From assembly GCA_041651535.1 (NCBI GenBank), contig JBAZIZ010000001.1, forward strand, positions 96,368 to 160,367: a stretch of DNA of 64,000 nt, in the 5' to 3' direction. Made by a program: the position numbers and the translations under genes. Of this stretch, positions 10,223-35,114 are shown one piece after another (position 1 is the first letter of the stretch; the number at the start of each line of letters is the position of its first letter). Under the pieces are notes generated by a model. The model saw only the letters and a program-made list of their open reading frames with translations. It was not told the origin of the DNA and made no database searches. The stretch comes from Patescibacteria group bacterium. GTDB taxonomy: Bacteria > Patescibacteriota > Patescibacteriia > Magasanikbacterales > UBA922.

Positions 10223-10488
10223 AACTCAGATTAACTGATTCTAGTTTAGCACAAAAAAGCAACATTCGCAAAATATTGATTAAAAAAATTTTATTTTATA
10301 AATTGGCTTATATATTGACCTAAAAAATAAGGCCAGACTAACAAAGACAAAATTGATTTCCAAAAAGTTAATTTTAAAAAACCAATTGTGAATAGCCAAG
10401 CAGCAAACCAAGAAAATGCTGTAAAGCTGTTATTCTCTATTTTTATTTTATTCATAAATTATTTTGATTAAAAATTATTTATTGAATC

Positions 10489-11571: not shown

Positions 11572-11604
11572 AAAAATTAAATTTTATTTTAAATAACTTT
11601 TTTA

Positions 11605-13287: not shown

Positions 13288-13317
13288 AATTAATAATTAA
13301 AAAATTATTTAATAAAT

Positions 13318-18300: not shown

Positions 18301-19638
18301 ATGAAAAAAGATAAACAACTCAAAATTGAGTATATTACTGTCGAGGAATTAAAATCATACGAACAAAACCCTCGTCTTTGGTCTGAAGATGCGACAAAAC
18401 AACTTAAAGAAAGTATTAAACGCTTTGGAGTTGTCGACCCTTTAATTGTAAATTCTGCACCTGACAGAAAAAACATAGTTCTTGGTGGTAATTTTAGATT
18501 ACTTATATTAAAAGAAATGGGTATTAAAATTATACCAATTGTATATATAAATATAACTGATACTAAAAAAGAAAAGGAGCTAGTTATTCGATTAAATAAA
18601 AACATAGGAACATGGGACTATAATCTCTTAAAAGAGTTTGATGAAGGTATTTTGTCTGACATAGGTTTTAATAGTGAAGAATTAGATGAAATATTTGATA
18701 TTGAATCAGAGCCTGAAAAATTTGATCTACAAAAAGAATTAGAGAAATTAAATATAAAAAATATAGAAATGAAAAAAGGACAAATCTGGCAACTTGATAA
18801 ATGTCGAATAATGATTGGAGATTCAACGATCAGAAAAGATATAGAAAAACTTATGAGTGATGAAAAAGCTGATATGTGTTTAACAGATCCACCATATATA
18901 CTTGATTATCTAAAAGGTAAAAAGAAAAATGGTAAACCCACTGAAGGTTTTGGTTACAAAAGAGATCGTAAATATTTAGAAACAGATATTTTACCTGATG
19001 ATTTTACAGAGAAATGGATATCCAATATATCTAAAATACAAAAAGAAAGTTTTAGTATTATATGTTATGAAAATTGGAAGAATTTACGAATCATTTGGAA
19101 TGAAATGGAAAAATACTGGAAAATAAAAAATATGATTGTTTGGCATTTACCTAATAGAACACAAGGATTTGCAGCTAAATATAAATTTTTTAGTAAACAT
19201 GATATTGCAATGGTTGGAGTTTCTAAAAAACACTCTTGTGAATTAAATACGACGAATGAAGAAGAATTACTTGAAGAAGAATATAGAACTGCTCTTTTTG
19301 CTATTTCAGGAAAACCACATTGGGAAGGCTATAAAAAAGGTAAAAAATACACACCAACTGATTTTATCGAATACAAGGCTAGTGATGAAAAAAGTTCAGG
19401 ACAAGGAATAATATTTGGTACAAAACCATTAGAAATATTAATTCCCTACATAAAAGTATTAACCAAAAGAAATGATCTAATTATCGAACCATTTGGTGGA
19501 AGTGGTAGTACACTGATAGCTTCATATAAAATGAAAAGACGTTGTTATTTAATGGAAAAGTCCCCTATCTATGCTGAAGTGATTAGAAATAGATGGGAAA
19601 AATTTTCTGGCAAAAAAGCTAAATTAATTAAAAATTAA
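18301..19638 (+). CDS. ParB-like nuclease domain fused to beta-class DNA methyltransferase (DPPY)
   Basis: N-terminal ParB/Srx-like region (IEYITVEELKSYEQNPR..VDPLIVN); motif IV CLTDPPYILDY followed by C-terminal motif I IIEPFGGSGST (beta-class order). Confidence 0.8.
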   Translation: MKKDKQLKIEYITVEELKSYEQNPRLWSEDATKQLKESIKRFGVVDPLIVNSAPDRKNIVLGGNFRLLILKEMGIKIIPIVYINITDTKKEKELVIRLNKNIGTWDYNLLKEFDEGILSDIGFNSEELDEIFDIESEPEKFDLQKELEKLNIKNIEMKKGQIWQLDKCRIMIGDSTIRKDIEKLMSDEKADMCLTDPPYILDYLKGKKKNGKPTEGFGYKRDRKYLETDILPDDFTEKWISNISKIQKESFSIICYENWKNLRIIWNEMEKYWKIKNMIVWHLPNRTQGFAAKYKFFSKHDIAMVGVSKKHSCELNTTNEEELLEEEYRTALFAISGKPHWEGYKKGKKYTPTDFIEYKASDEKSSGQGIIFGTKPLEILIPYIKVLTKRNDLIIEPFGGSGSTLIASYKMKRRCYLMEKSPIYAEVIRNRWEKFSGKKAKLIKN

Positions 19639-19642
19639 AAAT

Positions 19643-20029
19643 ATGAATCAAAAAAAGAAAAAAGAATTAATTAAATTAGTTCAAGAAAACCCAATTATTG
19701 AACTAGCATGTCGTAAAATTGGTATAGCTAGATCTACTTTTTACAGATGGAAATTTGAAGATAAAAAATTTTCTTTAGATATAGAAAAAGCTAGAGAAGA
19801 AAGTAAAGAAGTAGTTAGTGATCTAGCCGAATCACAGCTTATAACTTTAATTAAAGATGGAAAAATAAGAGCAGTAATGTTTTGGCTTAAAAGTCATCAT
19901 AAAGATTATGCAACAAAAGTAGAACTAAAAGGAAAAGTAAAATTAGCTACTGATGAATTATCAGAAGAACAAAAAATAAATGTTGAAAAAGCACTTCAAT
20001 TATATGGTCTTACTCCTAATAAAAAATAA
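19643..20029 (+). CDS. putative phage terminase small subunit (HTH)
   Basis: 128 aa; HTH ELACRKIGIARSTFYRWK; immediately upstream of and overlapping the large terminase gene. Confidence 0.45.
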   Translation: MNQKKKKELIKLVQENPIIELACRKIGIARSTFYRWKFEDKKFSLDIEKAREESKEVVSDLAESQLITLIKDGKIRAVMFWLKSHHKDYATKVELKGKVKLATDELSEEQKINVEKALQLYGLTPNKK

Positions 20030-20033
20030 TAAT

Positions 20034-21470
20034 ATGGCAATATACAATGAAATAATCAATGATAGAATAACAAGAGTGGCTATATCCAGAACAAGTCATA
20101 AATGGTTTTTTGCTACTTATTTTAATCATTATATAACTTATAAGGCTGCTAAATTTCATCATGAAATGTTTGATATAAGTGAAAATGAAAATATTAATCA
20201 AGTAGCAATGGTGGCTTTTAGAGGTTCTGGCAAATCTACTATTTTTACTTTATCATATCCACTATGGGCAATAACTGGAAAACAAAGAAAAAAGTTTGTA
20301 GTTATTTTAGCCAGAACACAAAGACAAGCAAAACAGTTACTAAATAATATAAAAAAAGAATTAGAGTCTAACGAATTACTACGTAATGATCTTGGCCCTT
20401 TTGAAGATCAATCTGATGAATGGGGTTCTTATGCTTTACTTTTACCTTGGTATAACGCAAAAATAATATCTGTATCAATGGAACAAACAATACGTGGAAT
20501 GAGACATATGCAGTATAGGCCTGATCTAATTATTTGTGATGATGTGGAAGATCTTGATTCTGTAAAAACAAAAGAAGGGAGAGATAAAGTAAAAAAATGG
20601 ATTACTGGTGAAGTTATACCTGCTGGAGATAAAAATACAAGAATTATCTTTATAGGAAATCTTTTACACGAAGACTGCTTATTAATAAATATTATAAATA
20701 AAATAAAAGAAAAAAAAATAGATGGAATATATAAATTTATACCAATTGTTGATAATAATGAAAACATAATGTGGCCAGATAAATTTAAAAACATGGATGA
20801 GATTAAAAAAGAAAAAAATAAACTATCTAATAAAATATCTTGGCTAAGGGAATATATGTTAAAAATTGTACCTGAAGAAAATCAGGTTATTCACAGAGAA
20901 TGGATAAAGTATTATGACGAGTTACCTACTAAAAAAAATATTCATTATAGACAAACGGTAATAGGTGTTGATCTTGCAATATCACAAAAAAATTCAGCTG
21001 ATTATACAGCAATGGTTTGTATGCAAGTTCATGGACGTAATGAAAATTTAAAAATATACATATTACCAAATCCAATTAACAAAAGAATGACTCATCATGA
21101 AACACTAGAAACAATAAAAAAACTCTATGCAACCTTATCAACCAATGGACATCTCTTATCAAATATATATATCGAAGATGTTGGTTATCAAAAATCAGTA
21201 GTACAAGAACTTGATAGGTTTAGAGTCCCAGCAGAAGGAGTTTCTGTTTCTGGTACTGATAAAAGAACAAGACTTACCACAGTAAGTCATCTTATACAAA
21301 ATGGTGCAGTTATATTTCCTAGAAAAGGATGCGAATTACTAATTGACCAATTAGTTCATTTTGGCGTTGAAAAATATGATGATTTAGTTGATGCATTTAC
21401 TATTGCTTTAAATAAAGTAATACAGGATGATAATAGAGGTTATTTAGCTTCTGATTTTCTTTTGTTTTAA
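20034..21470 (+). CDS. phage terminase large subunit (Terminase_6/PBSX-like); ORF-track start 19980 overlaps terS, so the Met at 20034 (MAIYNE...) is the likelier start
   Basis: Walker A-like AFRGSGKST; Walker B LIICDDVEDL; C-terminal RNaseH-like nuclease region with conserved acidic residues. Confidence 0.7.
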   Translation: MAIYNEIINDRITRVAISRTSHKWFFATYFNHYITYKAAKFHHEMFDISENENINQVAMVAFRGSGKSTIFTLSYPLWAITGKQRKKFVVILARTQRQAKQLLNNIKKELESNELLRNDLGPFEDQSDEWGSYALLLPWYNAKIISVSMEQTIRGMRHMQYRPDLIICDDVEDLDSVKTKEGRDKVKKWITGEVIPAGDKNTRIIFIGNLLHEDCLLINIINKIKEKKIDGIYKFIPIVDNNENIMWPDKFKNMDEIKKEKNKLSNKISWLREYMLKIVPEENQVIHREWIKYYDELPTKKNIHYRQTVIGVDLAISQKNSADYTAMVCMQVHGRNENLKIYILPNPINKRMTHHETLETIKKLYATLSTNGHLLSNIYIEDVGYQKSVVQELDRFRVPAEGVSVSGTDKRTRLTTVSHLIQNGAVIFPRKGCELLIDQLVHFGVEKYDDLVDAFTIALNKVIQDDNRGYLASDFLLF

Positions 21471-22585
21471 TCACAATTCGGGTTTAAAGTCCTAGTTGGA
21501 TAAGCTATTAAAAGTTCTTCTAATGAGTTGAAAACTTTTAAATTACTAGGACTTAATTCTTGCCAACTTTCACAAGAAGCTGGGTAATAATATTTAGTTC
21601 TCCAATGTGAAGAAGTATAATATTTATTATCACTTTGTGTTTCTAAAATTGATTCATTTTCTGTTTCATTATTATTTGATTCAACATTAGATGCTTGAGT
21701 TGTGTCACCATCACATGTATCAGATGACCAAAGACCTCTTAGATTATCTCTTGCTTCTTTTTCTGCTGTTTTAAATTCTGCTTGATATTTATAAGGTAAA
21801 TTATATGTATATTCATGAGCAAAACCTTGTTCAATCATATATTTATTATAAAATAAACCGTCTTCACGATAAACATATGCTAATAATCTTCCATAAATAT
21901 CAAATTCACCTTGAGTAGGATCAGTTTCTATACGAACTTTTGTCCCTGATAAAAGTTCTTTAGCTTTATTAGATGCTTCAACTCCAAAACACTGAACAGG
22001 TTTTCTAGGGTCAACTGTTTCAGGAGTATCTAATCCTATAAGACGCAAAGTGATAATATCACCGTCTTTTAAAATTTTAATGGTATCACCATCAGTTACT
22101 TTTTCAACTTGATAATAAATATATTTTGAATCATTTGTTTCTTCTTCTTTTGTATTTTCAACATATTCTTCTGTATTATTTTTTTCTGTAATACCTTCTT
22201 CTGTCTTTAATTCAATTATATTTTCATCATCATTCTGAACAATATTTTCTGAAGTTTCATTTTCTGCTATTTCATTTACTAATTCTTCTCTGTTTTTTTC
22301 TTTCAAATTATTAGCAACAAATACTTCACCTTGATTACTATTTTCAACAGGTGGTGCGGTTATTCCCATTATTATAAAAGTTGCAATAATTAGAAAAGAG
22401 AATAAAAGGAGTATGTTTTTTCTTTTAGGAACCCTTTTTAAGGTATCATAAAAAATATTTGGCTTTATTAAACCTGCTACCAAAAAAAATACTGAAAATA
22501 TAAATAGAAAAAAAGAAAAAATAAACATATTATATATAAAAATAAAAAACCAATTATAATCAGCTGGTTTTTTGTTTTTAAACAC
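21467..22585 (-). CDS. membrane-anchored SNase/thermonuclease-like nuclease
   Basis: N-terminal TM helix; VTDGDTIKIL...RLIGLDTPET...YGRLLAYVY staphylococcal-nuclease motifs. Confidence 0.7.
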   Translation of the reverse strand: MFKNKKPADYNWFFIFIYNMFIFSFFLFIFSVFFLVAGLIKPNIFYDTLKRVPKRKNILLLFSFLIIATFIIMGITAPPVENSNQGEVFVANNLKEKNREELVNEIAENETSENIVQNDDENIIELKTEEGITEKNNTEEYVENTKEEETNDSKYIYYQVEKVTDGDTIKILKDGDIITLRLIGLDTPETVDPRKPVQCFGVEASNKAKELLSGTKVRIETDPTQGEFDIYGRLLAYVYREDGLFYNKYMIEQGFAHEYTYNLPYKYQAEFKTAEKEARDNLRGLWSSDTCDGDTTQASNVESNNNETENESILETQSDNKYYTSSHWRTKYYYPASCESWQELSPSNLKVFNSLEELLIAYPTRTLNPNCD

Positions 22586-22637
22586 AAAACCCCAGACCAG
22601 CCGGACCTTGCGGTCCTATATTTGTTTCCAAATATAA

Positions 22638-22682
22638 CTCGTTGAAAAGTCGCTGATCTTGGGGATCAGTATTTTCAACGAG
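22638..22682. other. nested palindrome CTCGTTGAAAA-[CTGATC ttgggg GATCAG]-TTTTCAACGAG; candidate att core or operator for the adjacent serine recombinase
   Basis: perfect 11-bp outer inverted repeat enclosing a 6-bp inner one; in the divergent intergenic region upstream of the recombinase; further small palindromes nearby (CTCATAAA..TTTATGAG, GACGCGTC). Confidence 0.3.
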
Positions 22683-22913
22683 GTTTCATACCATGCTCAT
22701 AAAAATTTATGAGTTTAGGTATCTGGTATTATCCAGTGTTAATTGTAATTACATTTTAACTTAAAAAAGCTAAAATGTCCAATTTAATAATAGCTTAGAT
22801 ATTGATTTTTGCGAAGTCTAGTTACCAACAGTTTACCTACTTCCCTACTGGACGACAGGAACGGGACGCGTCATTAATGTAAGTAATAAGATAATAATTT
22901 TTAATTTAATATC

Positions 22914-24206
22914 ATGGAACAAGAACAAGACAATCTTCAAGAAAAAGTCCGTTATTGCCTATATGCTAGAAAAAGTACAGAGCAAGATGAACTTCAAGCA
23001 TTATCAATAGATTCTCAAATCAAAGAAATGCTTGATATGGCTAATAAGGAAGGCATGAATATAGTAGAGATAAGAAAAGAAAGCCATTCGGCTAAAGATT
23101 CAGGGCAAAGACCAGTATTCAATCAACTACTCATGGATATAAAGAAAGGAATGTTTAATGGTATTTTATGTTGGGCACCTGATAGATTAAGTAGAAATGC
23201 AGGAGACTTAGGTTCAACAGTAGATTTAATAGATCAAGGTCATTTGTTAGAAATACGAACACACAGTCAAAAATTTACCAATAATCCAAATGAAAAATTT
23301 CTTCTCATGATCTTAGGTAGTCAAGCTAAATTAGAAAATGACCATAAAGGCGAAAATGTAAAACGTGGACTTAGAGCAAAATGTGAACAAGGCTGGCGAC
23401 CTGGCTTACCTCCTCTTGGATATTGGCATGATAAATATGCTAACAAAGGTCAAAAGAAAGTTTTTATAGATACTGAAAGAGCTCCTCATATAAAAAAGAT
23501 GTTTGAGCTAGTGGCTTATGAAAATTATAGTGGTAGAGATTTAGATATATGGCTAAGAAAAAATAATGTAAAAACTAAAAAAGGTAAAAACTTTACTTTA
23601 AGTATGGTTTATAGAATATTAGCTGAACGATTCTATTATGGAGATTTTGAATATCCTGTTGGTAGTGGAAAAATATATAAAGGATCACATGAACCTATAA
23701 TATCAAAAGAGCTTTTTATGAAAACAAGAGAAAACTTAACAGTAGCACCAAGAAGGCATCCTGGAACAATAGATTATGCTTTTACTAGATTATTTTATTG
23801 TGGAAAATGTGGTTCTGGAATATCAGCTGAAGAAAAATTTAAACATCAAAAAAACGGTACAGTTCATAGGTATGTCTATTATCACTGCACCAGAGGTAAG
23901 GACAGAAACTGTAAAGAAAAAGCAATTCGTGAAGAAGATTTGATCAAGCAAATGGTTAACCTGATTGATAAGATCGAAGTGGACCAATTAAAAATTGGCG
24001 AAAAAGTGAAAGCTGAAATGGATAGATTTAGGAAGTTTAGTTCTATGCTAGGACAAACCGCTGAACAGCTCAAAAATGTTAACCTAGATGCGAGAAACTA
24101 TGCCAAGTATATTCTTTTGGAAGGAAGTAAAGAGGAAAAAAGAGAGTTATTGGAGTGTATGAGAGGAAAAGTAGTATTGAAGAATAAGGAATTATTTGTT
24201 AAATAA
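22914..24206 (+). CDS. large serine recombinase (phage-type integrase)
   Basis: N-terminal resolvase domain with catalytic YARKSTEQD; recombinase domain; Cys-rich zinc ribbon CGKCGSG...YYHCTRGKDRNC. Confidence 0.85.
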   Translation: MEQEQDNLQEKVRYCLYARKSTEQDELQALSIDSQIKEMLDMANKEGMNIVEIRKESHSAKDSGQRPVFNQLLMDIKKGMFNGILCWAPDRLSRNAGDLGSTVDLIDQGHLLEIRTHSQKFTNNPNEKFLLMILGSQAKLENDHKGENVKRGLRAKCEQGWRPGLPPLGYWHDKYANKGQKKVFIDTERAPHIKKMFELVAYENYSGRDLDIWLRKNNVKTKKGKNFTLSMVYRILAERFYYGDFEYPVGSGKIYKGSHEPIISKELFMKTRENLTVAPRRHPGTIDYAFTRLFYCGKCGSGISAEEKFKHQKNGTVHRYVYYHCTRGKDRNCKEKAIREEDLIKQMVNLIDKIEVDQLKIGEKVKAEMDRFRKFSSMLGQTAEQLKNVNLDARNYAKYILLEGSKEEKRELLECMRGKVVLKNKELFVK

Positions 24207-24208
24207 TT

Positions 24209-24952
24209 CTATTTTTTAATTTTAGACTTTATAAAATCTAAAAATTTTTGATTAACCTGTAATTTTTGCTTACCATTTTCAAGTGTTAAATTAATTCCAG
24301 AAATATTTTTAAATAAAATTAAGGCGAATCTGATTACTTTTTTTGCATTACCTTTATCTTGCTTATTTCCAATATCGAAAGAATGAATATATTTATTTCT
24401 AATATTTCTAATTTCTTCTAACATTCTCGCGTTGTCTTCATCAATAATTTTAACTAAGTTCAATATTTTTATTCTTCTTTCTTGATCTACTTTACCAAAA
24501 AGAATTTTTTGTTCATTTTTATCAAGTATATTTCCACCCATTGAAAATTTATTCATTTCCCAAACAACATAAGACATCATTTCAGCAGAAAGTCCTGCAA
24601 GTGTAATACATGAAAGATATTCACCTAGAGTAAAATATTTTTTTGCTAAAAGTAAAGGTTGAATGATTCTATTGGTAATATCTTCATAATTTTGACTAGG
24701 AGTAATACCTAAATGAGTTTCGTCATCTGTAATTTCACAATATCGTCTTATTTCATCTTTTTTTATTTTAGAAAAATCTTTACCCAAAAAATCTTCCAGC
24801 ATTGAAATAGAATGATCCTGACGTTGTTTCAAATCTTTCTTTTTTGGTTTTGTTAATAACCAATTTTTATCATCTTCAGAAAAAATAGGACCGAAGCGAT
24901 TTAAATTTAGAAGAATAGTATTTCCTTGTGACATATCAACTACTTTCCTCAA
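24209..24952 (-). CDS. hypothetical protein with HEPN-like Rx4H motif; third gene of the MTase-helicase operon
   Basis: EEIRNIRNKYIHSFD near the C-terminus; start overlaps the MTase stop by 17 nt. Confidence 0.45.
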   Translation of the reverse strand: MRKVVDMSQGNTILLNLNRFGPIFSEDDKNWLLTKPKKKDLKQRQDHSISMLEDFLGKDFSKIKKDEIRRYCEITDDETHLGITPSQNYEDITNRIIQPLLLAKKYFTLGEYLSCITLAGLSAEMMSYVVWEMNKFSMGGNILDKNEQKILFGKVDQERRIKILNLVKIIDEDNARMLEEIRNIRNKYIHSFDIGNKQDKGNAKKVIRFALILFKNISGINLTLENGKQKLQVNQKFLDFIKSKIKK

Positions 24953-27900
24953 TAACTTTTATCTCCTCATCAGTTAAATCATAAAGCTTATAAACTAACT
25001 GATCAATTTCTTCTTCTAATTTAGAAGTGTCAGCATCTGAATTTTCTTTTCTTGTTTTTAGTAATGTGTCAACTAAATTTATAATCGGTCTTTGTTCTTC
25101 TAATGAAATACTAGGAATTGGTAAATTATTTATGGCGGGCATTGTGATTTGCCACCCAACGTAAGTTTTTGTATATAAGAAATTAATAACTTTAGAATTA
25201 AGTACCGCTAATAAATATTTTAATGAAAATTTTTGATTTTTCTGCAAACAAATATAAGCAGTATTTAATAAATAAAACTGATCATTATCAATAGTACAAA
25301 CGAAAGAATTACTTCTACGTGGAAAAATTATTTTCTCTTTTGCCAAAAACAGCCGTTCTTCCCTAGGTCTATGTAATTTTTTTGTATATTTAATATACCT
25401 ATTTTCTTTCTTTTTATCATATTCAATTAGATATTTTTTTATATCTCGTCCATCTAAGACCCTTTTGTAATTTTCATCAACTTTTTCATTAGCAAAAACA
25501 TCTTCCTTTTTTTGACCAGAGTATATAATACCTTGCTGAACCTCAATTATATCTGATAAGGTTGTCGAACTAGAATTAATTTTATTTATTATACAATTTA
25601 TATTGGCTGAATTTTTAGTTAAAATGATGTCATTGATATCTGACTGTTTAATTTCTGTAATTTTTTTATTTAAATCTAATAAAATTTGGATAGAGGAATC
25701 TTTTTTAGATTTATTCTTTAAAACAATCACCGAAGTGTCAACGGCCGCTTCAAAAACACGGGAAGAAAAGTTGGAGATAGTGCAAATTTGTGTTTTTTCT
25801 AATAAATATTTTCTAATATGTCTATATTCAGAATTTGTATATAAAGATTCTGGTAGAATGAAAGTTAGAATTCCATCAGTCTTTAATAATTTTTGACCTT
25901 TTTCTAAAAATAGTGTAAATAAATTAAATCTACCTTTACCTGTATCAAATAAAATAGAAAAACTTTTTTTGTTTTTAGATGTGATTTTTTTAACACTTAC
26001 GTATGGAGGATTGCCAATTACGACATCAAAACCACTTATACCAAACATAAATTTTGGATCAAAAAATTCTGCCACCTGTTCATTATCAAATGGATGATAC
26101 GACTGCAACTGTTCAAGTTTTTTGGATTTACCAAGTAAATTACCTTGATTTTTTGTTAATAAAAGCTTGTTAAACTTTTCTTTTAGGGCTGTCTTAACCT
26201 GCGGACTGCGAGCGTTAAAATATTTATCCCTAATATCCTGCATTTGTTTTTCCAAATCATCCGCTTCATCAAACATCTGTTTTTGTTTAGTATCATCCAA
26301 AGGAATTAGACTATTTGCACAAACAAATTTAAAATCAAGGTTTGGCAATGGTTTAATTTTGTTACTATCAACTTCTTCATCGACAACAATTGACAACCAT
26401 GCTCTAAGTCGTGAAATTTCCACTGCCATTGGCTCTATATCCACCCCATGCAAATTATTTTTGATAATCTCTAGTTTCTTTTTATAAGAATCAAATGTGG
26501 CATCCAATCTTTCATAAGTCTGCAAAAGCAGAGACAGCATACCCATAGGAAAAGCTCCGGATCCGCAAGCAGGATCAAGTATTTTTATTTCATCAAGGGC
26601 TTTTAGTATGTCATATTTATATGGTTTTAATTTATCACGATAATTTCTTTGCTGATCTCTCCAATCATGCTCTTTACTATCCAACAAATTATCTATTAAT
26701 TCAAATGACTTACCTTCATCACCAAGAGTATTTTTCAAATATTGCCTGAGACTCTCGCGAGACATATAATCAACTATTTCGCGAGGAGTATAAAAAGCAC
26801 CTTTGGCTTTTCTTGCCTGTTCTCCGGTTTCTTCTGTTTGTTCAGCTAACAAATTTTCAAAAATACGCCCTAACATCTCTGGGTCAATCGCCACTTGTTG
26901 AAATGTACTAGTACTTTCATCAGTTGTAAAATTGTAATGATGAAGAAAATCAACGAGTCGGTCAAAATAATCAGCAGGAAATGTAAGCTTTGGATCACCA
27001 TGCTTATCTCCAAGTTTTTCTTCAAATAAACCACCGTTCAAAAATGGAGTAATATTATCAATACTTTTCTCTCTATCCTCAATCGGAGTATTAAAAACTT
27101 TAAAAAATAAAGTTTCCAATTTTTCTCTGTAATATTCTGTTGAATTTTTTCCGCTAGTGTTAAAATAATCAATTTTATCATTAATAATACCTTTTTTATC
27201 TAAAAACCAACAAAATACTAATCTACCAATTAAACGATTGACGAAGTAAGAAGCGTGCTTATCGTCAAAAACTTTTTCCTTAATTAAATGTTGTTTTAAT
27301 TCTACAAAGAATGAGCTTACTTCCTTGTAGAATCGTTTGTTGAGAGGTTCAATGTCAAAGCTTTGCCATAAAATTTCATGGACTTGAGCTTTGTTTGTAA
27401 AATCAAATTCTTGTAGCCATTTTGAAAATATTTCTTGTTGCGTAATAGTTAATTCTCCTGAAAGTTCCAAAGTACGAATAACATAATTTTTACTTAATAC
27501 TACTATTACTTTGTCAGATCTTTCTGGAATAACAAAATCAATCCCTACATTTAGATTTCCATAAAAAGGCTCGTCCTCAAAATTCGGAGTAAGAGCCACA
27601 AGCCAACTGATAATTGATTTTTTAGGTTTCTTAACCCAATATACTTTTAAATCTATTTTTTCCAAATTATCATTTGATATTTTGTATGAAGCTCTACGGT
27701 CAGCAAAACCTTCCGCTTCCATAAACCAGCCAGCGTTTGATCTGATTTTACCTTGAGAATCTGTAAATAATTTCCATTCATTTTTGGATTCAATACCAAA
27801 TAATGATACCAAATTATTAATTACATTTTGAGTATTTGAAAAACTCTTTTCCTGTGACAGAATTTTTATTGATTCGTTTAATTCCTGAATTTTTTCTGGT

Positions 27901-27974
27901 AGTTTATTCATTGTCTTTGACATAATACAAAACTTGTTTTGAGCTGGTAGATTGAACAGGTCTATCTTTTCCAT
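24936..27974 (-). CDS. large (~1000 aa) gamma-class N6-adenine DNA methyltransferase (Eco57I / type IIG / PglX-like architecture)
   Basis: FYTPREIVDYM (motif X), ILDPACGSGAFPMG (motif I), VIGNPPYVSVKK (motif IV); ~370-aa N-terminal region and ~350-aa C-terminal putative target-recognition region. Confidence 0.8.
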   Translation of the reverse strand: MEKIDLFNLPAQNKFCIMSKTMNKLPEKIQELNESIKILSQEKSFSNTQNVINNLVSLFGIESKNEWKLFTDSQGKIRSNAGWFMEAEGFADRRASYKISNDNLEKIDLKVYWVKKPKKSIISWLVALTPNFEDEPFYGNLNVGIDFVIPERSDKVIVVLSKNYVIRTLELSGELTITQQEIFSKWLQEFDFTNKAQVHEILWQSFDIEPLNKRFYKEVSSFFVELKQHLIKEKVFDDKHASYFVNRLIGRLVFCWFLDKKGIINDKIDYFNTSGKNSTEYYREKLETLFFKVFNTPIEDREKSIDNITPFLNGGLFEEKLGDKHGDPKLTFPADYFDRLVDFLHHYNFTTDESTSTFQQVAIDPEMLGRIFENLLAEQTEETGEQARKAKGAFYTPREIVDYMSRESLRQYLKNTLGDEGKSFELIDNLLDSKEHDWRDQQRNYRDKLKPYKYDILKALDEIKILDPACGSGAFPMGMLSLLLQTYERLDATFDSYKKKLEIIKNNLHGVDIEPMAVEISRLRAWLSIVVDEEVDSNKIKPLPNLDFKFVCANSLIPLDDTKQKQMFDEADDLEKQMQDIRDKYFNARSPQVKTALKEKFNKLLLTKNQGNLLGKSKKLEQLQSYHPFDNEQVAEFFDPKFMFGISGFDVVIGNPPYVSVKKITSKNKKSFSILFDTGKGRFNLFTLFLEKGQKLLKTDGILTFILPESLYTNSEYRHIRKYLLEKTQICTISNFSSRVFEAAVDTSVIVLKNKSKKDSSIQILLDLNKKITEIKQSDINDIILTKNSANINCIINKINSSSTTLSDIIEVQQGIIYSGQKKEDVFANEKVDENYKRVLDGRDIKKYLIEYDKKKENRYIKYTKKLHRPREERLFLAKEKIIFPRRSNSFVCTIDNDQFYLLNTAYICLQKNQKFSLKYLLAVLNSKVINFLYTKTYVGWQITMPAINNLPIPSISLEEQRPIINLVDTLLKTRKENSDADTSKLEEEIDQLVYKLYDLTDEEIKVIEESS

Positions 27975-30900
27975 CCAAAGTCTTATAAGATAAACTGATC
28001 AATTCTTTTAATTCATCTAGGAAACCTTCGTTTGCTCTTTTTTGTTTCACAATCTTTCTGACTAGTCTTCTTATTATCTGTTGATCTATAATATTTTTTG
28101 TTTGAAAAGCCAGTCTGACTTGTTCAATATCCTCTTCCAATGTTTGACTTTCAAATAAAATTCTTAGTAATTCTGTTTGTTGAGGAAGTGGAGCACCTAT
28201 TTCATCATCCTCTGAATAAGTGGCAATGCTTTGTCTTACCTTTTCATCTATCATTTGTTTGTCCACGCTAATGTTGTCAGAAACTCTTTCATTATTATCA
28301 TCAGTTGTTCTCAACCACTCTAGAGCCTGCAAATTGGTTACAGCCTGAAAATTAGATCCGTCCCTTAACATAGAGACAAAACTATGACCAATTACTTCAT
28401 AATTTTCATCACGTAAATTATTAAAGGATAAAACATCTGGTCTTTGCTCACCGCGATGAACAGTATTTGGCATAATAGCCCATTTACCAAGTGAAATATT
28501 GTATATTTTATCTCTGTACTCTTCGGATAATTTATCATTAAGATGAAAGTTTTTTAGATCTGCTACAAAAATATCTTCTGCCAACAAGAAATCAGCTTCT
28601 CTTTCTAATTTTTCCATTGCTTCAATACGTTTTTGAATATCTTCACTATAAATATCTTTTAGATTATCAGTATATTCAATCGGATTTGCTAGCTCGTCTA
28701 GTACGGGGGAATCGGTACCGATAGTATTTTTAATCAAATTAATTTTGCCTTCTAATCTTTCAACCAGTTGTAGATACTCTTCAAGTTTTGCTTCTGGTGA
28801 AATATTGTAAATATAAACTTTGTCATATGTACTACCTAAACGATTTACACGACCATTTCTTTGAATCATTCGAACAGGGTTCCAATGCAAATCATAGTTA
28901 ACAAGAATTCCACAATCTTGAAGATTTTGACCTTCCGATAGGATGTCGGTTGAAAATAAATAATCTAATTCAGTTTCATCGTCTTTGATTTTATAATTTT
29001 TTGCTTTTGGTGCAAATCTATTTGCCGAGTTTTCGCTATCAACTCTATTTTTAGATGAAATGAATGCGGAATTTTCATTTGTAATAAATTTTGCGTATTC
29101 AGGCAATGCTTCTTTTAAATATTCTACTGTATCAGCATAAAATGAAAAAATTAAAACCTTTTTTCCTGCTGGCTGTTCTTTTTGAAGATTTTTTAATAAT
29201 TCCGCAAAAGATCTAATTTTAGAATCATCTTTACCTAAAATAGAAAGTTGTCTATCAAGAATATCTATCAATATTCTTTCTCTTCGTATATCTTCTCTCA
29301 GTGCTTCTATATTATATTTTTTATCATCAATATCATCCAATTCCATTTCTTCATCAATTTTAATATCTTCAGGATTAAAATCTTCATCACCAATACCCAA
29401 CATTTCTTCAATATTACTGAGATTTTTTAGACTAACGATTTTACCAATATCCAAACCTTTTTCAAAAACATCCAATTTTCTTTTGTAAATGTCTAGAGAA
29501 CTTCTAATCGCACTAACAGATGACTCTAATCTTTTTAAGAACATCGTTCGCAAAATCCCATAGATACTTAATTGAAGAAATAATGATTTACTTTCTCTTT
29601 CATCAAGTTTCATGGCTTTTACTTCACCTCTTGTTTTTCCATAGTATTTTGTTTGATACATCATCCATCTATAAGGAACAAATCCTAACAATAAAATTAT
29701 CTGATAAACAAAAGCGACAGCTGATAAATTTGAAAATTTTTCATCATCTACTTCTGCTTCCAAATTTTCAATTTGATCAAGAGGGTGTAAAAGTGCATTT
29801 GTGTTTTTAACAATCTTATCAATTGGTAATCTGTAAATTTTACCCAGATCCACTTCATTACTTTCTAGATTTTTAACTTCATCAGCTACTTCTTTATTAA
29901 AACCATATTTTTTAACCTCTGGAACAACAGTTGGAAAATGACTTTCTTTACCACCAATATTCAATCCGCCATATTCTTTTTCTATCCCTTGCCTTGTCCT
30001 CCTAACAACAAAAGCTCTAATAATAGGAGCCATTACTTGCTGGACATAATTTTTATCAAAACTTCCATCTCTTTTTAGATCCTGTTTTATTTTCTTTTGT
30101 AAATTTTCAATTGCTTGATAAAAAGACATTTGAACCGTCTGTTTCAACTTTTTATCAACCGATGTCACTTTTAATACATCGGCAACACCTCTAGTACCAA
30201 GTAATATTTGATTTACAATATCACCTAATTGATTGTTAATAGGAGTGGCAGTAAGTAGAAGTACGTGAGCTTTGGGGTTATTTCTTATCCATTCAATAAT
30301 TTGATCAAATCTTTTTCCTCCGCGATTTTTTAAATTATGAGATTCATCAATAACAAATAACGATACACTGGCAATATTATCAAGCTCTTTTTTTCTTTCA
30401 ATTTCATTGGGATTTTGCAATGTAATTGGCGAAAGACCCAAAACTCCTTGTATTGCCATTTCTTTTTCCCATTGAGTTTTTAAGGATTTTGGACAAATAA
30501 TTTCAACACGCTGTTGTCCAGAGTCAGTATTAAGATATTGTTTTATTACTTCAATAGCAGTATATGTTTTCCCCAAACCAACAGAATCTGCCAACATAGC
30601 AACTTTATATTTTTTCAATCTTCTAACAAGGGCATGAACATTTTTGACTTGAAAATCCAAAAGATCATATTTACCTTTGATAGTTTCATCTAAGTTTTCT
30701 TCAATCAATTCATCGCTATACAAATCATAAAGTGTTTTTATATATGTTTCATAAGGACTAAAAAGAGTATCGCCAGCTGGTGAATTTTCTAATAATTCAG
30801 TAAATTGACCATTCCATTCTTCTGTTTGAGGATCATCCCAAAATTTATCAAACCAAAATAAATGACCAACTTCTTGGGTTTTAGATTTTGGTTGAAATGT

Positions 30901-31395
30901 TACAATTCTATGATCAGGTTCAAGAGAATTCAGTTCGGTATTTGAAGTCAATCCATTTTTTGTAAAATTGGATGACCCAATAATTCCAATCGCATTATCT
31001 GAAGAATAATCACCAAATATATAACATTTTGCATGAAGAAAATTCTTTCGATAAACACGAACTTCCAAATTACCATTTTTAATCATTACTTTTATTTCCT
31101 TGACTAATTCTTTTAATTCAGGGGTCGGTTGAATTCTTTCTAGATCATAAAAAAAATCTTTATCAGGATAATCTGGCTCTGGTTCAAGTTTTTTATGTCT
31201 TGGTATAAGGGGCTCTCTACCAATTAGTAGCCTGATTTTTTTATAGTCTTTGATCAAATCAAAGACTTCTTGCATTCCTTTTAGATCCCAATATCCAGTT
31301 GCAATTGAGAGATTTTGATAGTTTGAAGTTATTGATTTTATTGTATCCAATAAAACAACCCTATCATTATCAATGATTTTATGAAGATTTGACAT
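27904..31395 (-). CDS. HKD (PLD-family) nuclease domain fused to SNF2-family helicase
   Basis: single HKD motif FLHAKCYIF...GIIGSSNFTKNG; helicase motif I LADSVGLGKTYTAI, motif II DESHNLKN, motif VI QRNGRVNRLGS. Confidence 0.8.
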   Translation of the reverse strand: MSNLHKIIDNDRVVLLDTIKSITSNYQNLSIATGYWDLKGMQEVFDLIKDYKKIRLLIGREPLIPRHKKLEPEPDYPDKDFFYDLERIQPTPELKELVKEIKVMIKNGNLEVRVYRKNFLHAKCYIFGDYSSDNAIGIIGSSNFTKNGLTSNTELNSLEPDHRIVTFQPKSKTQEVGHLFWFDKFWDDPQTEEWNGQFTELLENSPAGDTLFSPYETYIKTLYDLYSDELIEENLDETIKGKYDLLDFQVKNVHALVRRLKKYKVAMLADSVGLGKTYTAIEVIKQYLNTDSGQQRVEIICPKSLKTQWEKEMAIQGVLGLSPITLQNPNEIERKKELDNIASVSLFVIDESHNLKNRGGKRFDQIIEWIRNNPKAHVLLLTATPINNQLGDIVNQILLGTRGVADVLKVTSVDKKLKQTVQMSFYQAIENLQKKIKQDLKRDGSFDKNYVQQVMAPIIRAFVVRRTRQGIEKEYGGLNIGGKESHFPTVVPEVKKYGFNKEVADEVKNLESNEVDLGKIYRLPIDKIVKNTNALLHPLDQIENLEAEVDDEKFSNLSAVAFVYQIILLLGFVPYRWMMYQTKYYGKTRGEVKAMKLDERESKSLFLQLSIYGILRTMFLKRLESSVSAIRSSLDIYKRKLDVFEKGLDIGKIVSLKNLSNIEEMLGIGDEDFNPEDIKIDEEMELDDIDDKKYNIEALREDIRRERILIDILDRQLSILGKDDSKIRSFAELLKNLQKEQPAGKKVLIFSFYADTVEYLKEALPEYAKFITNENSAFISSKNRVDSENSANRFAPKAKNYKIKDDETELDYLFSTDILSEGQNLQDCGILVNYDLHWNPVRMIQRNGRVNRLGSTYDKVYIYNISPEAKLEEYLQLVERLEGKINLIKNTIGTDSPVLDELANPIEYTDNLKDIYSEDIQKRIEAMEKLEREADFLLAEDIFVADLKNFHLNDKLSEEYRDKIYNISLGKWAIMPNTVHRGEQRPDVLSFNNLRDENYEVIGHSFVSMLRDGSNFQAVTNLQALEWLRTTDDNNERVSDNISVDKQMIDEKVRQSIATYSEDDEIGAPLPQQTELLRILFESQTLEEDIEQVRLAFQTKNIIDQQIIRRLVRKIVKQKRANEGFLDELKELISLSYKTLDGKDRPVQSTSSKQVLYYVKDNE

Positions 31396-31512
31396 GTAAT
31401 TGAATTTTAATAATTATAGATATTGTACTATTTTTGACCACAAAAGTAAAGTTATCAGAAAAACAAAAACCACTCTTTTGTAGAATGGTTCTTTTATTTT
31501 AATGAAATGACC

Positions 31513-31538
31513 TACTCGAGTCGGTTTCACCAAAATTA
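31513..31538. repeat. copy 4 of the ~29-nt direct repeat CGAGTCGGTTTCACCAAAATTAG
   Basis: 21/22 identity with the core of the 33058-33086 copy; overlaps the stop of the 31536..32117 gene. Confidence 0.55.
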
Positions 31539-32117
31539 GTCAACAAGACCAATAGATTCAGGAATGACTCCATGCAGAGGGAAAGAACTTGTGTTAATAA
31601 AAATCATCCAGTACAAAGCATCTTCAATACCAACCATAAAAGGAGCTATTTTTGCCACTACAAATTTAGAAATTTTTCTATATTTAAAATCACTTTTTAA
31701 TCTATCAAAATTAATTGGTTTGTTAATTATTAATTTTCTAAGATAGTTTGAAAACAAATACCATAATTCATCTTCATATAAAAAAACAGCAGGTATGTTA
31801 ATTTTCTTAAACAATATTTTTAATTGATCTTTTAAATGAATAAATGAAGTCAATTCTTCAATGTATTTATTAACCACATGCCGATCCCAAAGAACTTCTC
31901 TTTTATTAAATAATCTATTTAATTCTTCAAAATAATTATACATTTCTTTAATATTATCTTTTTTCTTATGCAATATCCAATCAGAATAAAATTTAATTAC
32001 CCTAAATTGTTCAGTATTTTCATCTTCTAATAAAATTCTGATCGAGGAAAAGAAATAATTTACATCAGCTTCAGATTTAAAACCTTTATCAATTATTTTT
32101 TCTATTGTTTCTTTCAT
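31536..32117 (-). CDS. hypothetical protein (possible paralog of 33164..33778)
   Basis: 193-aa ORF; same position relative to the direct repeat as the 204-aa ORF. Confidence 0.5.
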   Translation of the reverse strand: MKETIEKIIDKGFKSEADVNYFFSSIRILLEDENTEQFRVIKFYSDWILHKKKDNIKEMYNYFEELNRLFNKREVLWDRHVVNKYIEELTSFIHLKDQLKILFKKINIPAVFLYEDELWYLFSNYLRKLIINKPINFDRLKSDFKYRKISKFVVAKIAPFMVGIEDALYWMIFINTSSFPLHGVIPESIGLVD

Positions 32118-32281
32118 AAATTTATATCTAAATTCATAAAAAAATTAATGTTTTTTATCTTTTAAAACATAATAATTTGACATATTTTATGAGTTAAAAT
32201 TAAATATATTTTTATATTATCATTTTTAATTTATATTGTAAAACAAAAAAATAAACTTTTAAAAAAATTTTATTATGTTTT

Positions 32282-32998
32282 TTAATTATCTAAGTTATTT
32301 TCAATAAAAAATAAACACGAATTGATATAATCAAACAACATATTAATTAATTCACCTTGATTCAAGCTTGAACTTTCCACTATTTCTTCATCTGTTTTAG
32401 AACATGCAACTTGTTTTACATTATGTCTCATATCACTCATAAACCATGTACACTGTTTATGTTTCTTTTGATTATGTACAATGTCAACATTTCTATAATT
32501 AACAATAGAATCTATAATTTCTTTAAGCATAGGTAGATTTTTATCTTTAAATTTTTTTACCCTTTCATCATCTCCTGAATATACTTTTAATTTATTATAA
32601 AATTTAGTGATTGACCTATCACCAATGTCTCTCCAATCATAAAGAGATCTAAATAGTTCTGTAAAATCATCTAAAAAGATTTTAATAAATATATATAAAC
32701 ACTTTAAATCTAAAGAATTTTCTCTATTTATAGCTTCACTTTTTTTTCTTAAAATTTGACCTAGTTCATTAATTGTATTATTAATATTATTTTCTTTTTG
32801 AATTTCTCTTTCATTTCTTTCAAATAAAAAAATATTTCTTTCTAATCTTGTAAAAATAGTTTCAATATCATAAAAAGAACGCAAAACAACAGAAATTCTA
32901 CGGTTTAATTTATTACCTTTATTATATTTTTCTTTATTTAAAATATTAGATATATTTGATATTTTATCTCTAATATTTTTAAAATCTATAGTTTCCAT
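32282..32998 (-). CDS. hypothetical protein with HEPN-like Rx5H motif
   Basis: IVNYRNVDIVHNQKKH. Confidence 0.45.
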   Translation of the reverse strand: METIDFKNIRDKISNISNILNKEKYNKGNKLNRRISVVLRSFYDIETIFTRLERNIFLFERNEREIQKENNINNTINELGQILRKKSEAINRENSLDLKCLYIFIKIFLDDFTELFRSLYDWRDIGDRSITKFYNKLKVYSGDDERVKKFKDKNLPMLKEIIDSIVNYRNVDIVHNQKKHKQCTWFMSDMRHNVKQVACSKTDEEIVESSSLNQGELINMLFDYINSCLFFIENNLDN

Positions 32999-33057
32999 AT
33001 ATTTATTATAACAAAAACCGTCCTTTTTTAGAACGGCTTTTTTATTTGGTGATATAA

Positions 33058-33086
33058 CCCAATCGGGTCGGTTTCACCAAAATTAC
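33058..33086. repeat. copy 3 of the direct repeat CCCAATCGGGTCGGTTTCACCAAAATTAC
   Basis: 27/29 identical to 35011-35039. Confidence 0.6.
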
Positions 33087-33163
33087 CTGCTCTAATAAAA
33101 GAAACAAATCAAGGTTCAAAATAAATTTTTATAATTTTAAATAAAATCAATATACTATTTCGT

Positions 33164-33778
33164 TTATTCAAATTTGAAAGGAACAACTAAAACAGTACTA
33201 TCACTATGTAAAATATATAAATTTATAAGCCCTCCCCAAATTGGAACTGTATTTTCTTTAAGTGAAACCTGAGTTACCCAACACCCTAATTTTATAGGAT
33301 TTGCTTTTATATTTTCAATAATAATTTTATCTTTCTTTTTTGTTAAATTCTGTGATAAGTGTATAGGGCAATCTTGTAAAATTTTAATAAGATTAACAGC
33401 AAAATTTTTCCAAAAATAATCGTTGTCAAAAATCGTCACATTAATACTATTTTTTTTTAATAAATACTTTATTTCAGTACGTAAATCTTTAAATGAGATG
33501 GCACCCGAAATAAGTACAGATACTAAGTTTTTATCTTTAAAAGTTTTAATATTTGATATTATTTTATTTAGTTTTTCTATAACATGTAATGCCGCAGTTC
33601 TATCCATATCAATATGAACCGACCAATTACAAAAAAATTCAAGAAGTTCTATATCTTTTTCATTAGTATTATCAATTAATTTTCTCATTAGTACCATCAA
33701 ATGAACTATATGACTCTCACTTAAATTATCAGGTAGCGTAATAATATTAGCTATTTTATTAACAATTTCATTTCTCAT
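33164..33778 (-). CDS. hypothetical protein
   Basis: 204-aa ORF. Confidence 0.5.
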   Translation of the reverse strand: MRNEIVNKIANIITLPDNLSESHIVHLMVLMRKLIDNTNEKDIELLEFFCNWSVHIDMDRTAALHVIEKLNKIISNIKTFKDKNLVSVLISGAISFKDLRTEIKYLLKKNSINVTIFDNDYFWKNFAVNLIKILQDCPIHLSQNLTKKKDKIIIENIKANPIKLGCWVTQVSLKENTVPIWGGLINLYILHSDSTVLVVPFKFE

Positions 33779-33803
33779 AATATAACTACGCTTAGTTTAT
33801 TTT

Positions 33804-34751
33804 TTAAAAAGGTAAATCTTCTATTATGTTAGAATCCTCTTTTAGAACCCAGATTGCATTTTTGTTAATTTTATATTTATTAAGATAATTATTTTTAATA
33901 TTTTCCACTTCTTCCGTTGAAATAAATTTTTCTGGTAAAGATAAAATCACCAACTCTGCAATCGACATACAATTATATGTTACTAATTTATAAAAATTAG
34001 AATTATTTACTGGAATAGTATTTTGATCTGTATGCCTTATGTTACTGATCTGATTCGCTAAATCTTTAGAGTTTTTAACAGCATCGTTAAGTAATTTTGT
34101 TAGCGATAAAACGTTCTTTTCGCTAGTCCACTTTTGAGATACCATTTTGCAAAGATTTTCACTGTAATTCTTTGTATTTTTTTTATCCTTTGGACTACTA
34201 AAAATATTTTGTATTAAATCAGCAGTGATTCTTGATAAAACTTGATAATTAGGATTCTCAATATTTGTTAAGAAAAACTCTTCCAACTTATCTTTTAAAG
34301 ACTTATTTTTTATGAATGGCACAACTGACCTAACACCGGTTATATTTTTATTAAAAAATAAATACTCATGTATCAAAAATGGCGTATCTTCTTCCTCTAA
34401 TATATAATTAATTCTTGTTATAACAATACTCCTCTTTTCTTGTTTACTAAAAATAATTAAAATTTCTAATAAATCAAATATTACTGCATCTTTTTTATTA
34501 GAATAACTTAAACAATTTTTTAAATCAACATAATCCACAATAGAATTTCCTATTTCTCTCATTCCTAACTCTTTAAGAGAATCATGATTTAAACAAAATA
34601 TATTTTTTTCCTCGTTATATACTAAAAGAAAACGTTCAATATATTCATCGCTACTTGATATAAATTTAATCTCTTCAAGAAGACGGTTTCTTATTCTTTC
34701 TTCTAGAAAATTTTTATCTGCTTGTTTATATCTTTTTGAAAATAATTCCAT
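33804..34751 (-). CDS. hypothetical protein
   Basis: 315-aa ORF. Confidence 0.5.
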   Translation of the reverse strand: MELFSKRYKQADKNFLEERIRNRLLEEIKFISSSDEYIERFLLVYNEEKNIFCLNHDSLKELGMREIGNSIVDYVDLKNCLSYSNKKDAVIFDLLEILIIFSKQEKRSIVITRINYILEEEDTPFLIHEYLFFNKNITGVRSVVPFIKNKSLKDKLEEFFLTNIENPNYQVLSRITADLIQNIFSSPKDKKNTKNYSENLCKMVSQKWTSEKNVLSLTKLLNDAVKNSKDLANQISNIRHTDQNTIPVNNSNFYKLVTYNCMSIAELVILSLPEKFISTEEVENIKNNYLNKYKINKNAIWVLKEDSNIIEDLPF

Positions 34752-34806
34752 AATAAAAAACTAAACACAAACGAGAACTACCTCGCTTAAATTAAGACCC
34801 CCAAAA

Positions 34807-34833
34807 ACGGATTGGTTTCATAAAAATTATTTT
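34807..34833. repeat. degenerate copy 2 of the direct repeat (GGATTGGTTTCATAAAAATTAT)
   Basis: about 16/22 identity to the core motif. Confidence 0.35.
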
Positions 34834-35010
34834 TTCAGGGATAAGGCTTCGTCTTTCGTCGGCTTCCACCTCCTTAGACTAGTATAATTTTATACATAAT
34901 AACAGCTTATATTGTACTATCTTTTAACCTAAAAGTAAAGTTAATTAAAAAAACAAAAATCGCCTATAAATGGCGATTTTTGCATATAAAACTTAGGTGA
35001 AGTTTTCTGA

Positions 35011-35039
35011 CCCAATCGGGACGGTTTCACCAAAATTAT
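35011..35039. repeat. copy 1 of the direct repeat CCCAATCGGGACGGTTTCACCAAAATTAT, 4 nt from the tRNA-Gln 3' end
   Basis: abuts the tRNA (35044); the same motif recurs three more times downstream on the tRNA strand. Confidence 0.6.
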
Positions 35040-35043
35040 CTGC

Positions 35044-35114
35044 TCGGGGACAGGGATTCGAACCCCGATAGCCAGGACCAAAACCTGGAGTCCTACCGTT
35101 AGACGATCCCCGAA
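35044..35114 (-). tRNA. tRNA-Gln(UUG)
   Basis: reverse complement TCGGGGA-TC-GTCT-AACGGTA-GGAC-T-CCAGG-TTTTGGT-CCTGG-CTAT-CGGGG-TTCGAAT-CCCTG-TCCCCGA-G; U1:A72 as in many tRNA-Gln; anticodon UUG. Confidence 0.8.

Follow-up and report, generated by a model that had tools for sequence, protein, structure and literature searches.

What kind of system is encoded by three tightly packed genes on the minus strand of a Patescibacteria group bacterium genome, and which of the three form its core? The genes lie at positions 24,209 to 31,395 of a 64,000-nucleotide (nt) stretch of contig JBAZIZ010000001.1 (assembly GCA_041651535.1), which is here called the window, and encode a fusion of an HKD nuclease of the phospholipase D (PLD) type with an SNF2 helicase, a large N6-adenine methylase, and a small protein with a HEPN-like motif. 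An earlier note, made from the sequence alone, had described them as a three-gene operon. Open reading frame (ORF) calls confirmed the three minus-strand ORFs on which that description was built, Pfam searches bore out the domain assignments (PLD, SNF2, Eco57I-type methyltransferase, and, weakly, the HEPN-like small protein), and the motifs that had been named proved to be real and invariant in homologue alignments of all three proteins. The genes do form one tightly packed unit, but the HEPN gene, which is absent from the closest relative, is not part of its core. The conserved unit is composed of two genes, not three, with the helicase directly upstream of the methylase. We consider it reasonably probable that the locus is a two-gene, ATP-dependent defence module resembling restriction-modification (RM) systems, whose recognition domain can be exchanged and to which a HEPN gene is optionally attached.

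The evidence for the pair comes from the 80 best helicase loci in a one-genome-per-species collection. In half of them (40 of 80) a methylase of this family was found at most 4 kb from the helicase, so that the conservation of gene neighbourhood, which the earlier note had proposed as a check, does recur; 12 loci carried type III-like genes instead, and 13 were truncated by contig ends. The helicase preceded the methylase in every close relative inspected, with junction overlaps of 8 nt in locus L081 and 62 nt in locus L082, and 39 of 120 listed methylase homologues had a longest-contig size equal to that of a listed helicase homologue. The two-gene unit was also intact in dozens of unrelated genomes and on small plasmids. 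Across 36 loci, distances between helicases were strongly correlated with distances between the methylase segments up to the NPPY motif (Mantel r = 0.83, p = 5e-4), in contrast to the segments after NPPY, which hold the recognition half of the protein (r = 0.30). This difference indicates that the pair has been inherited as a unit while its recognition half was shuffled.

The upstream gene encodes a nuclease joined to a motor, for which Pfam returned PLDc_2 (amino acids 22-164), SNF2-rel_dom, and Helicase_C. The HKD domain (PLDc_2, 7e-10; RE_NgoFVII, 4e-6) carries the HxK(x)4D...GSxN signature of HKD/PLD nucleases as a single copy, a sequence pattern that would imply dimerization. Residues H121-x-K123 and G140-S-S-N143 were invariant in 12 diverse homologues, and the solved structure nearest to the domain was the PLD domain of SauUSI (E = 0.0065, aligned across HxK...GSSN), followed by BfiI. 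The motif set of the SNF2 core is complete, with GLGKT277, DESH353, and QRNGR849 invariant in homologues, and the core matched Pfam and NCBIfam models as well as RapA, ISWI, and Snf2 in the PDB. The C-terminal region that follows could be aligned only in closer relatives whose methylase retains its N-terminal domain, and we infer that it may contact the partner. Pfam recognized no DNA-recognition or modification-reading domain belonging to the helicase itself. The family is large (at least 4953 homologues at E <= 1e-10 among 8000 candidates scored, mostly 1155-1170 amino acids long) and ranges over bacterial phyla, archaea, plasmids, and predicted proviruses; its top 120 members are more than 50% identical yet are drawn from many phyla. 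No full-length relative was found in the GenBank phage collection, and distant relatives occurred in 157 IMG/VR contigs. The best PADLOC match of the helicase was the model 'C3a139 HKD+Snf2' (2e-44), which names no system.

A second helicase architecture was also observed, comprising the helicase, a DUF4391 gene, a beta-class N6_N4 Mod methylase, and a type III Res subunit with a C-terminal endonuclease domain. It accounts for 12 of the 80 genome loci and about 50 of 80 IMG/VR contigs, examples being L026, L047, L051, L054, L070, L073, L075, L077, and many of L093-L172; no paper on this arrangement was found in the literature. Because these relatives adjoin type III Mod and Res genes with DUF4391, the helicase family is recurrently tied to methylase-based systems of self/non-self distinction.

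The downstream gene had been described as an Eco57I/PglX-like large adenine methyltransferase. It does encode an N6-adenine methylase, but not a methylase alone, since it has an extra N-terminal domain and, among PADLOC models, matches best that of type IIG restriction-methylase fusions (REase_MTase_IIG, 3.6e-153, followed by PglX at 1.6e-31 and DrmMI at 1.3e-19). Pfam matches were Eco57I (5e-33), N6_Mtase, MmeI_Mtase, MmeI_hel, and TaqI_C (7e-21). Gamma-class N6-adenine motifs and a C-terminal recognition domain are present in one chain, as in type IIG/IIL restriction-methylase fusions. The catalytic motifs FYTP, GSG, and NPPY were invariant columns in an alignment of 42 homologues, and the catalytic region matched PglX and M.TaqI in the PDB.

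The N-terminal domain of this protein deserves separate attention. When residues 1-180 were modelled apart, they formed an alpha/beta domain (pLDDT 91) with weak matches to restriction-endonuclease-like folds; a sequence-profile search against the PDB and Pfam returned chance matches only, and a Foldseek search against the PDB gave nothing significant. In the model, D75, D91, and K93 occupy positions on consecutive strands or ahead of them, which is the layout of a canonical PD-(D/E)xK site. Among the 42 close homologues D91 was invariant and D75 and K93 were at least 90% conserved, whereas one or more of the three residues were lost in more distant helicase-partnered methylases (L002, L003, L007, L091, L092). 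Given a triad that is kept in the close clade, a weak fold assignment, and distant partners without the triad, an intrinsic restriction-endonuclease-like nuclease in this domain is possible but unproven. The domain also holds a second invariant cluster (NFED114-117, GIDF127-130, D137, R150, E153), which is not accounted for by the D...DxK triad and is partly kept in the distant triad-less relatives.

The segment past NPPY has a different history from the rest of the protein. Compared with homologues P0136 and P0137, the methylase was 92-100% identical over residues 1-650 and 16-30% identical over residues 651-950, with recovery in the last 45 amino acids, and at the DNA level similarity to L081 was lost at 25996 and regained at 25053. 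Since identity drops abruptly across residues 651-950 and then recovers, the recognition module has clearly been exchanged by recombination. In another relative, L091 (Lactococcus cremoris plasmid pJM1F), an inverted stand-alone TaqI-like recognition gene and an Mpi-family invertase lie directly 3' of the methylase (8763-10230 of that locus), an arrangement that suggests phase-variable specificity. Both the swapped region and the inverted cassette with its invertase are hallmarks of variation in restriction specificity.

The third gene encodes a protein with weak Pfam matches to DUF4145 (E = 2.5e-4) and to HepT-like domains. The DUF4145 profile matched all 15 family members (E <= 0.01, with 1e-5 as the best value), and the window copy scored 21.6 bits, just below the cut-off of 23.1. 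Residues R179, N180, Y182, and H184 of the Rx4H motif were invariant in these 15 sequences, and on this pattern the protein belongs to the HEPN/DUF4145 family. Only 14 homologues were found in all. The closest relative of the locus, L081, has a helicase 91% identical to that of the window and, like the window, neighbouring genes for a serine recombinase, a terminase, and a ParB-methylase; it lacks the HEPN gene of about 740 bp, its methylase stop directly adjoining the recombinase stop. A tblastn search did not find the gene in any of the 80 genome loci, and the third genes of other relatives were unrelated to it: a GHKL-type ATPase (HATPase_c), DUF2130, an SMC-like ATPase, and a YhcG/DUF1016 nuclease. 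In Gracilibacteria a 62%-identical HEPN gene lies 3' of a divergent helicase-methylase pair (methylase 29% identical). Other homologues were seen between the hsdR and hsdM genes of a type I RM operon (L087, 9001-9756) and after an NgoPII-type RM pair with a SMODS/AGS_C cyclase-like gene (L089, 4313-5029). The HEPN gene is thus a dispensable, roaming accessory and not a core component, because it is absent from L081 and because elsewhere there are other third genes or the HEPN gene sits in type I or type II RM contexts. These contexts agree with the known embedding of DUF4145 HEPN domains in RM operons (PMC3710099).

How do these proteins compare with known enzymes? Type IIG/IIL fusions (MmeI, DrdV, BpuSI, Cj0031), to which the best PADLOC match points, share with the methylase a helical spacer, a gamma-class N6-adenine methylase, a C-terminal recognition domain, and possibly an N-terminal PD-(D/E)xK domain, which is weakly assigned here. 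Those enzymes act alone and without ATP, whereas here a co-evolving HKD-SNF2 partner is encoded directly upstream. For the helicase-nuclease the best mechanistic precedent is SauUSI, a PLD-helicase restriction enzyme that translocates at the expense of ATP and cuts both strands when its PLD domains dimerize (PMC7913695). In SauUSI, too, a nuclease with a single HKD motif stands at the N-terminus, ahead of a helicase-like ATPase, and translocation is coupled to cleavage; it differs, as a type IV enzyme, in being a single protein with its own modified-DNA recognition domain, no methylase partner, and an SF2 helicase that is not SNF2-type. Type ISP (LlaGI/LlaBIII) and type III RM enzymes follow a similar logic of long-range communication from an unmethylated site, in that an adenine methylase with its recognition domain is linked to a nuclease and to a motor powered by ATP. 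In type ISP the nuclease is Mrr-type, the helicase is RecA-type, and all parts belong to a single chain; type III enzymes consist of a beta-class Mod and a Res subunit. Here, in contrast, there are two genes, an HKD nuclease, and an SNF2 motor; the methylase is gamma-class and Res is absent from the window.

We infer an interaction between the two proteins, translocation along DNA, a particular cutting nuclease, and an activity in defence, which could be joined as follows. The Eco57I/MmeI-family protein would recognize DNA through its exchangeable TaqI-like domain and mark host DNA with N6-methyladenine, and its partner would be an SNF2-type double-stranded DNA translocase bearing a single N-terminal HKD nuclease motif. 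At an unmethylated site the methylase subunit may recruit or license the helicase-nuclease, which would then travel along DNA using ATP and cut when two HKD domains meet, since a single HKD motif is half an active site, as in dimeric SauUSI. In the clade of the window the methylase N-terminal domain may add a second cut of PD-(D/E)xK type. The HEPN/DUF4145 protein would be an accessory, probably a back-up RNase that the core reaction does not need. The mechanistic question posed by this architecture is how recognition and methylation by a type IIG-like enzyme are made to work together with an SNF2 motor that brings only one half of an HKD active site.

Several points weigh against such a two-gene module. 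In 15 of the 80 loci neither a detectable methylase of the family nor type III genes were present, although the flanks were long enough; the Mantel correlation could stem partly from shared transfer history and not from functional coupling; literature searches found no experimental study of this gene pair or family; and the large protein might restrict alone, since its best match is to complete type IIG fusions and it keeps the D...DxK triad. Taken further, the last point would make the locus two independent defence genes travelling together, a self-sufficient type IIG/IIL enzyme and a SauUSI- or Hna-like single-gene HKD-SNF2 system. The conservation of the triad in the 42 close homologues would suit this explanation, as would the existence of single-protein PLD-helicase restriction enzymes and the clustering of defence genes in islands, of which the window itself offers an instance in a type II RM system with an embedded AIPR/AbiU gene. 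We nevertheless judge it unlikely: gene order is fixed, start and stop codons overlap or abut across phyla, the helicase has co-evolved strongly with the methylase core and not with the recognition domain, and it has no recognizable domain of its own for recognizing DNA or reading modifications. Moreover, distant helicase-partnered methylases lose the triad while the HKD motif stays invariant. This last pattern also bears on a split enzyme of type ISP-like organization, in which the large protein is the methylase and specificity subunit, its N-terminal domain is dead as a nuclease, and HKD is the sole nuclease. Neither SMART, for a homologue on plasmid pLd8, nor Pfam, here, found a restriction domain, and the lack of significant Foldseek matches and of the triad in the five distant relatives points the same way; conversely, the near-complete conservation of the three residues in the window's clade, and their placement on successive strands that suits the canonical fold, argue against it. 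The split enzyme is possible, if on the doubtful side, and is a sub-variant of the two-gene module and not a true alternative to it.

The two remaining explanations concern the third gene and the resemblance to larger systems. An obligate three-component system, with the HEPN protein as effector and the helicase and methylase as sensor and self-marker, would fit the abutment of the HEPN gene on the methylase stop codon, the invariant Rx4H motif, and the recurrence of the gene beside the divergent Gracilibacteria pair. With the gene missing from L081 in the same context and from all 80 genome loci, and with its few homologues residing in part in type I and II RM surroundings while other loci carry unrelated third genes, such a system appears very unlikely. 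Less probable still, to the point of being hardly credible, is the derivation of the locus by decay from class 1 DISARM or from a BREX or BREX-related (Hma) system. The overlapping domain set (PLD, SNF2, large N6-adenine methylase) and partial profile matches to DrmD, PglX, BrxHII, and HmaA could be taken in its favour; it is opposed by the completeness of the two-gene unit in unrelated genomes and on small plasmids, by the lack of core partners nearby, and by NCBIfam scores that are all far below cut-offs, as detailed next.

Class 1 DISARM (DrmA, DrmB, DrmC, DrmD, DrmMI) resembles the locus in combining a PLD nuclease and an SNF2 helicase with a large, type IIG-like N6-adenine methylase. Here, however, PLD and SNF2 are fused, and the core of DrmA and DrmB (DUF1998) is absent; DrmA and DrmB were not found in related loci either. 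Of BREX, the BrxC ATPase and the PglZ phosphatase were not found in the scanned flanks, and PglX was below its cut-off. All NCBIfam models for components of DISARM, BREX, Dpd, and Zorya scored far under their cut-offs (DrmD, 153 versus 610; DrmC, 17.9 versus 133; BREX-1 PglX, 135.6 versus 500). Type-2 BREX-related (Hma) systems come closer in one respect, having an HKD nuclease fused N-terminally to an SNF2 helicase beside an N6 methylase. This fusion is their proposed restriction effector, and the systems are centred on a DUF499 AAA+ ATPase and a stand-alone DUF3780, found in 98% of taxa (PMC12839542). Both are absent from the window flanks and the closest loci, and the methylase is of another family. 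The PADLOC model of HmaA matched the helicase at 6e-22, more weakly than DrmD or the 'HKD+Snf2' model; Hma itself has been tested experimentally and its nuclease is a C-terminal PD-(D/E)xK domain (PMC11232893). When the neighbouring ORFs between about 10.5 kb and 42 kb of the window were scanned with Pfam and PADLOC, no DrmA/DrmB, BrxC/PglZ, DUF499/DUF3780, or type I/III subunits were found. Membership in DISARM, BREX, type-2 BREX-related/Hma, or type I/III systems was therefore rejected, core genes being absent and models below threshold, in agreement with the earlier note, which had already argued against regarding the locus as a piece of DISARM, BREX, or a type I/III system.

The same note had held the combination to be undescribed, which the literature contradicts. 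In Lactococcus lactis, orf33-orf35 of plasmid pLd8 were reported in 2018 as the same operon and a putative RM system; its authors suggested that restriction cleavage is carried out by the PLD domain, remarked on the resemblance to class 1 DISARM, and saw no restriction domain in SMART (PMC6098607). The operon type was also listed in a 2023 survey of programmed inversions (PMC9881135), in agreement with the inverted cassette of pJM1F. In the operons of pLd8, pJM1F, and Lactobacillus plantarum plasmids, as here, a PLD-SNF2 helicase gene lies directly 5' of an N6-adenine methylase with TaqI_C, classed as 'type IIG' in REBASE; the pLd8-type helicase is 37% identical to that of the window over 90% of its length. 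The lactococcal operons differ in their third element, an inverted recognition cassette with an invertase and not a HEPN gene. The pair is widespread, previously noted in passing and unnamed, and the kind of system it represents is not new. The helicase is named by none of the NCBIfam models, and PADLOC would label the locus solely through the methylase, as a type IIG RM system; a common restriction architecture has therefore probably been under-counted.

A broader and rather doubtful view would regard HKD-SNF2 as a portable 'motor-nuclease booster' of methylase modules, its C-terminal region docking on the methylase N-terminal domain and the HEPN protein serving as an abortive back-up. Local, site-bound recognition would in this way be turned into ATP-driven, long-range shredding of unmethylated DNA. 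HKD-SNF2 was seen with two recognition modules, MmeI-like type IIG/IIL enzymes on the one hand and type III Mod/Res with DUF4391 on the other, and enzymes of both classes are known to modify a single DNA strand only. If the booster view were true, these would constitute a distinct and very widespread class of two-nuclease, ATP-dependent restriction systems that are now mis-annotated as plain type IIG RM.

Table 1. Features of the operon, with coordinates given as positions of the window
Feature	Position	Strand	Details
HKD(PLD)-SNF2 helicase-nuclease gene	27904..31395	-	1163 aa; ORF call and Pfam
Single HKD nuclease domain, aa 22-164	30904..31332	-	H121, K123, G140-S-S-N143
SNF2-type ATPase core, aa 244-911	28663..30666	-	Walker A GLGKT277, DESH353, motif VI QRNGR849
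Helicase C-terminal region, aa 912-1163, no known fold assigned	27907..28662	-	No family match
Methylase ORF, longest form	24936-27974	-	1012 aa
Type IIG/IIL-like N6-adenine methylase / putative restriction-methylase fusion gene	24936..27923	-	Pfam, PADLOC, P0135 identity
Methylase N-terminal alpha/beta domain, aa 1-175	27399..27923	-	Candidate PD-(D/E)xK triad D75, D91, K93
Helical spacer domain, aa 178-330	26934..27392	-	
Gamma-class methyltransferase catalytic region, aa 375-650	25974..26801	-	FYTP377-380, DPACGSG450-456, NPPY638-641
Variable region past NPPY including TaqI_C target-recognition domain, aa 651-950	25074..25973	-	Recombinationally swapped
Small-gene ORF, longest form	24209-24952	-	247 aa
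Accessory HEPN/DUF4145-family gene	24209..24934	-	241 aa from ATG 24934
HEPN Rx4H motif R179-N-K-Y-I-H184	24383..24400	-	
Terminator-like hairpin, 5' of helicase	31465-31493	-	Consensus scan
Best promoter-like site, following the hairpin, 5' of helicase	31413-31440	-	Consensus scan

The gene models in Table 1 (aa, amino acids) depend on the choice of start codons. The earlier note had quoted overlaps at 27904-27974 and 24936-24952 as signs of coupling; the tight packing stands, whereas the extents of the overlaps are products of taking the longest possible ORFs. Methylase homologues begin with MNKLP or MSKLP, which favours a start at 27911 (991 amino acids) and gives an 8-nt overlap, ATGAATAA, with the helicase stop, equal in length to that of L081. 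The alternative start at 27923 gives a protein of 995 amino acids, to which P0135, from a Patescibacteria metagenome-assembled genome, is 100% identical. For the small gene the most likely start is ATG 24934, which matches P0121 in length and leaves a TGA-T-ATG junction without overlap. Whichever starts apply, the three genes are tightly packed with no intergenic space. The hairpin and the promoter-like sites are consensus matches in AT-rich DNA, where 50 of the latter were found against 38.7 expected, and are suggestive only. Genetic code 25 was examined because one HEPN homologue is annotated from Gracilibacteria; read-through of TGA joined no major ORFs, six of 73 long ORFs terminated in TGA, and the gene models were the same, so that code 11 was retained. 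In the Gracilibacteria helicase homologue itself (L085, 1599-4886) there is an in-frame stop under table 11, which fits code 25 (UGA = Gly) in that lineage.

The operon adjoins a block (18301-24206) that encodes a ParB-N6_N4 methylase, a helix-turn-helix small-terminase-like gene, a large terminase, a staphylococcal-nuclease homologue, and a large serine recombinase, which bears out the mobile, defence-related context seen in the earlier note. The block is syntenic with L081 (recombinase at about 74% DNA identity) and looks like a prophage remnant or a satellite-like element. On the other side, 31470-35040 holds two islets, one with ORFs 31536-32117 and 32282-32998 and the other with ORFs 33164-33778 and 33804-34751, bounded by three 47-nt direct repeats (31492-31538, 33039-33085, 34992-35038), the last of which directly adjoins tRNA-Gln (35042-35113) at its 3' end. 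In L081 this entire stretch of 3.4 kb is missing and tRNA-proximal sequence runs straight into the helicase promoter region; the islets look like serial insertions at a tRNA-linked attachment site. Searches for family or defence-family matches of the four islet ORFs found none; as candidate partners of the operon they were ruled out by the repeats that bound them and by their absence from L081. Most likely, the operon is carried on a serine-recombinase-type mobile element beside tRNA-Gln. Defence cargo, recognition-domain swapping, and accessory HEPN capture are thereby documented in Patescibacteria (the candidate phyla radiation), organisms with small genomes and little experimental defence biology.

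Two further observations concern these surroundings. A serine recombinase also adjoins the helicase-methylase pair in L055, L085, and L091. Elsewhere in the window, a type II RM unit (10489-14379) consists of a methylase (13318-14379) and a restriction enzyme (10489-11571) with an AIPR/AbiU-family gene (11605-13287) between them.

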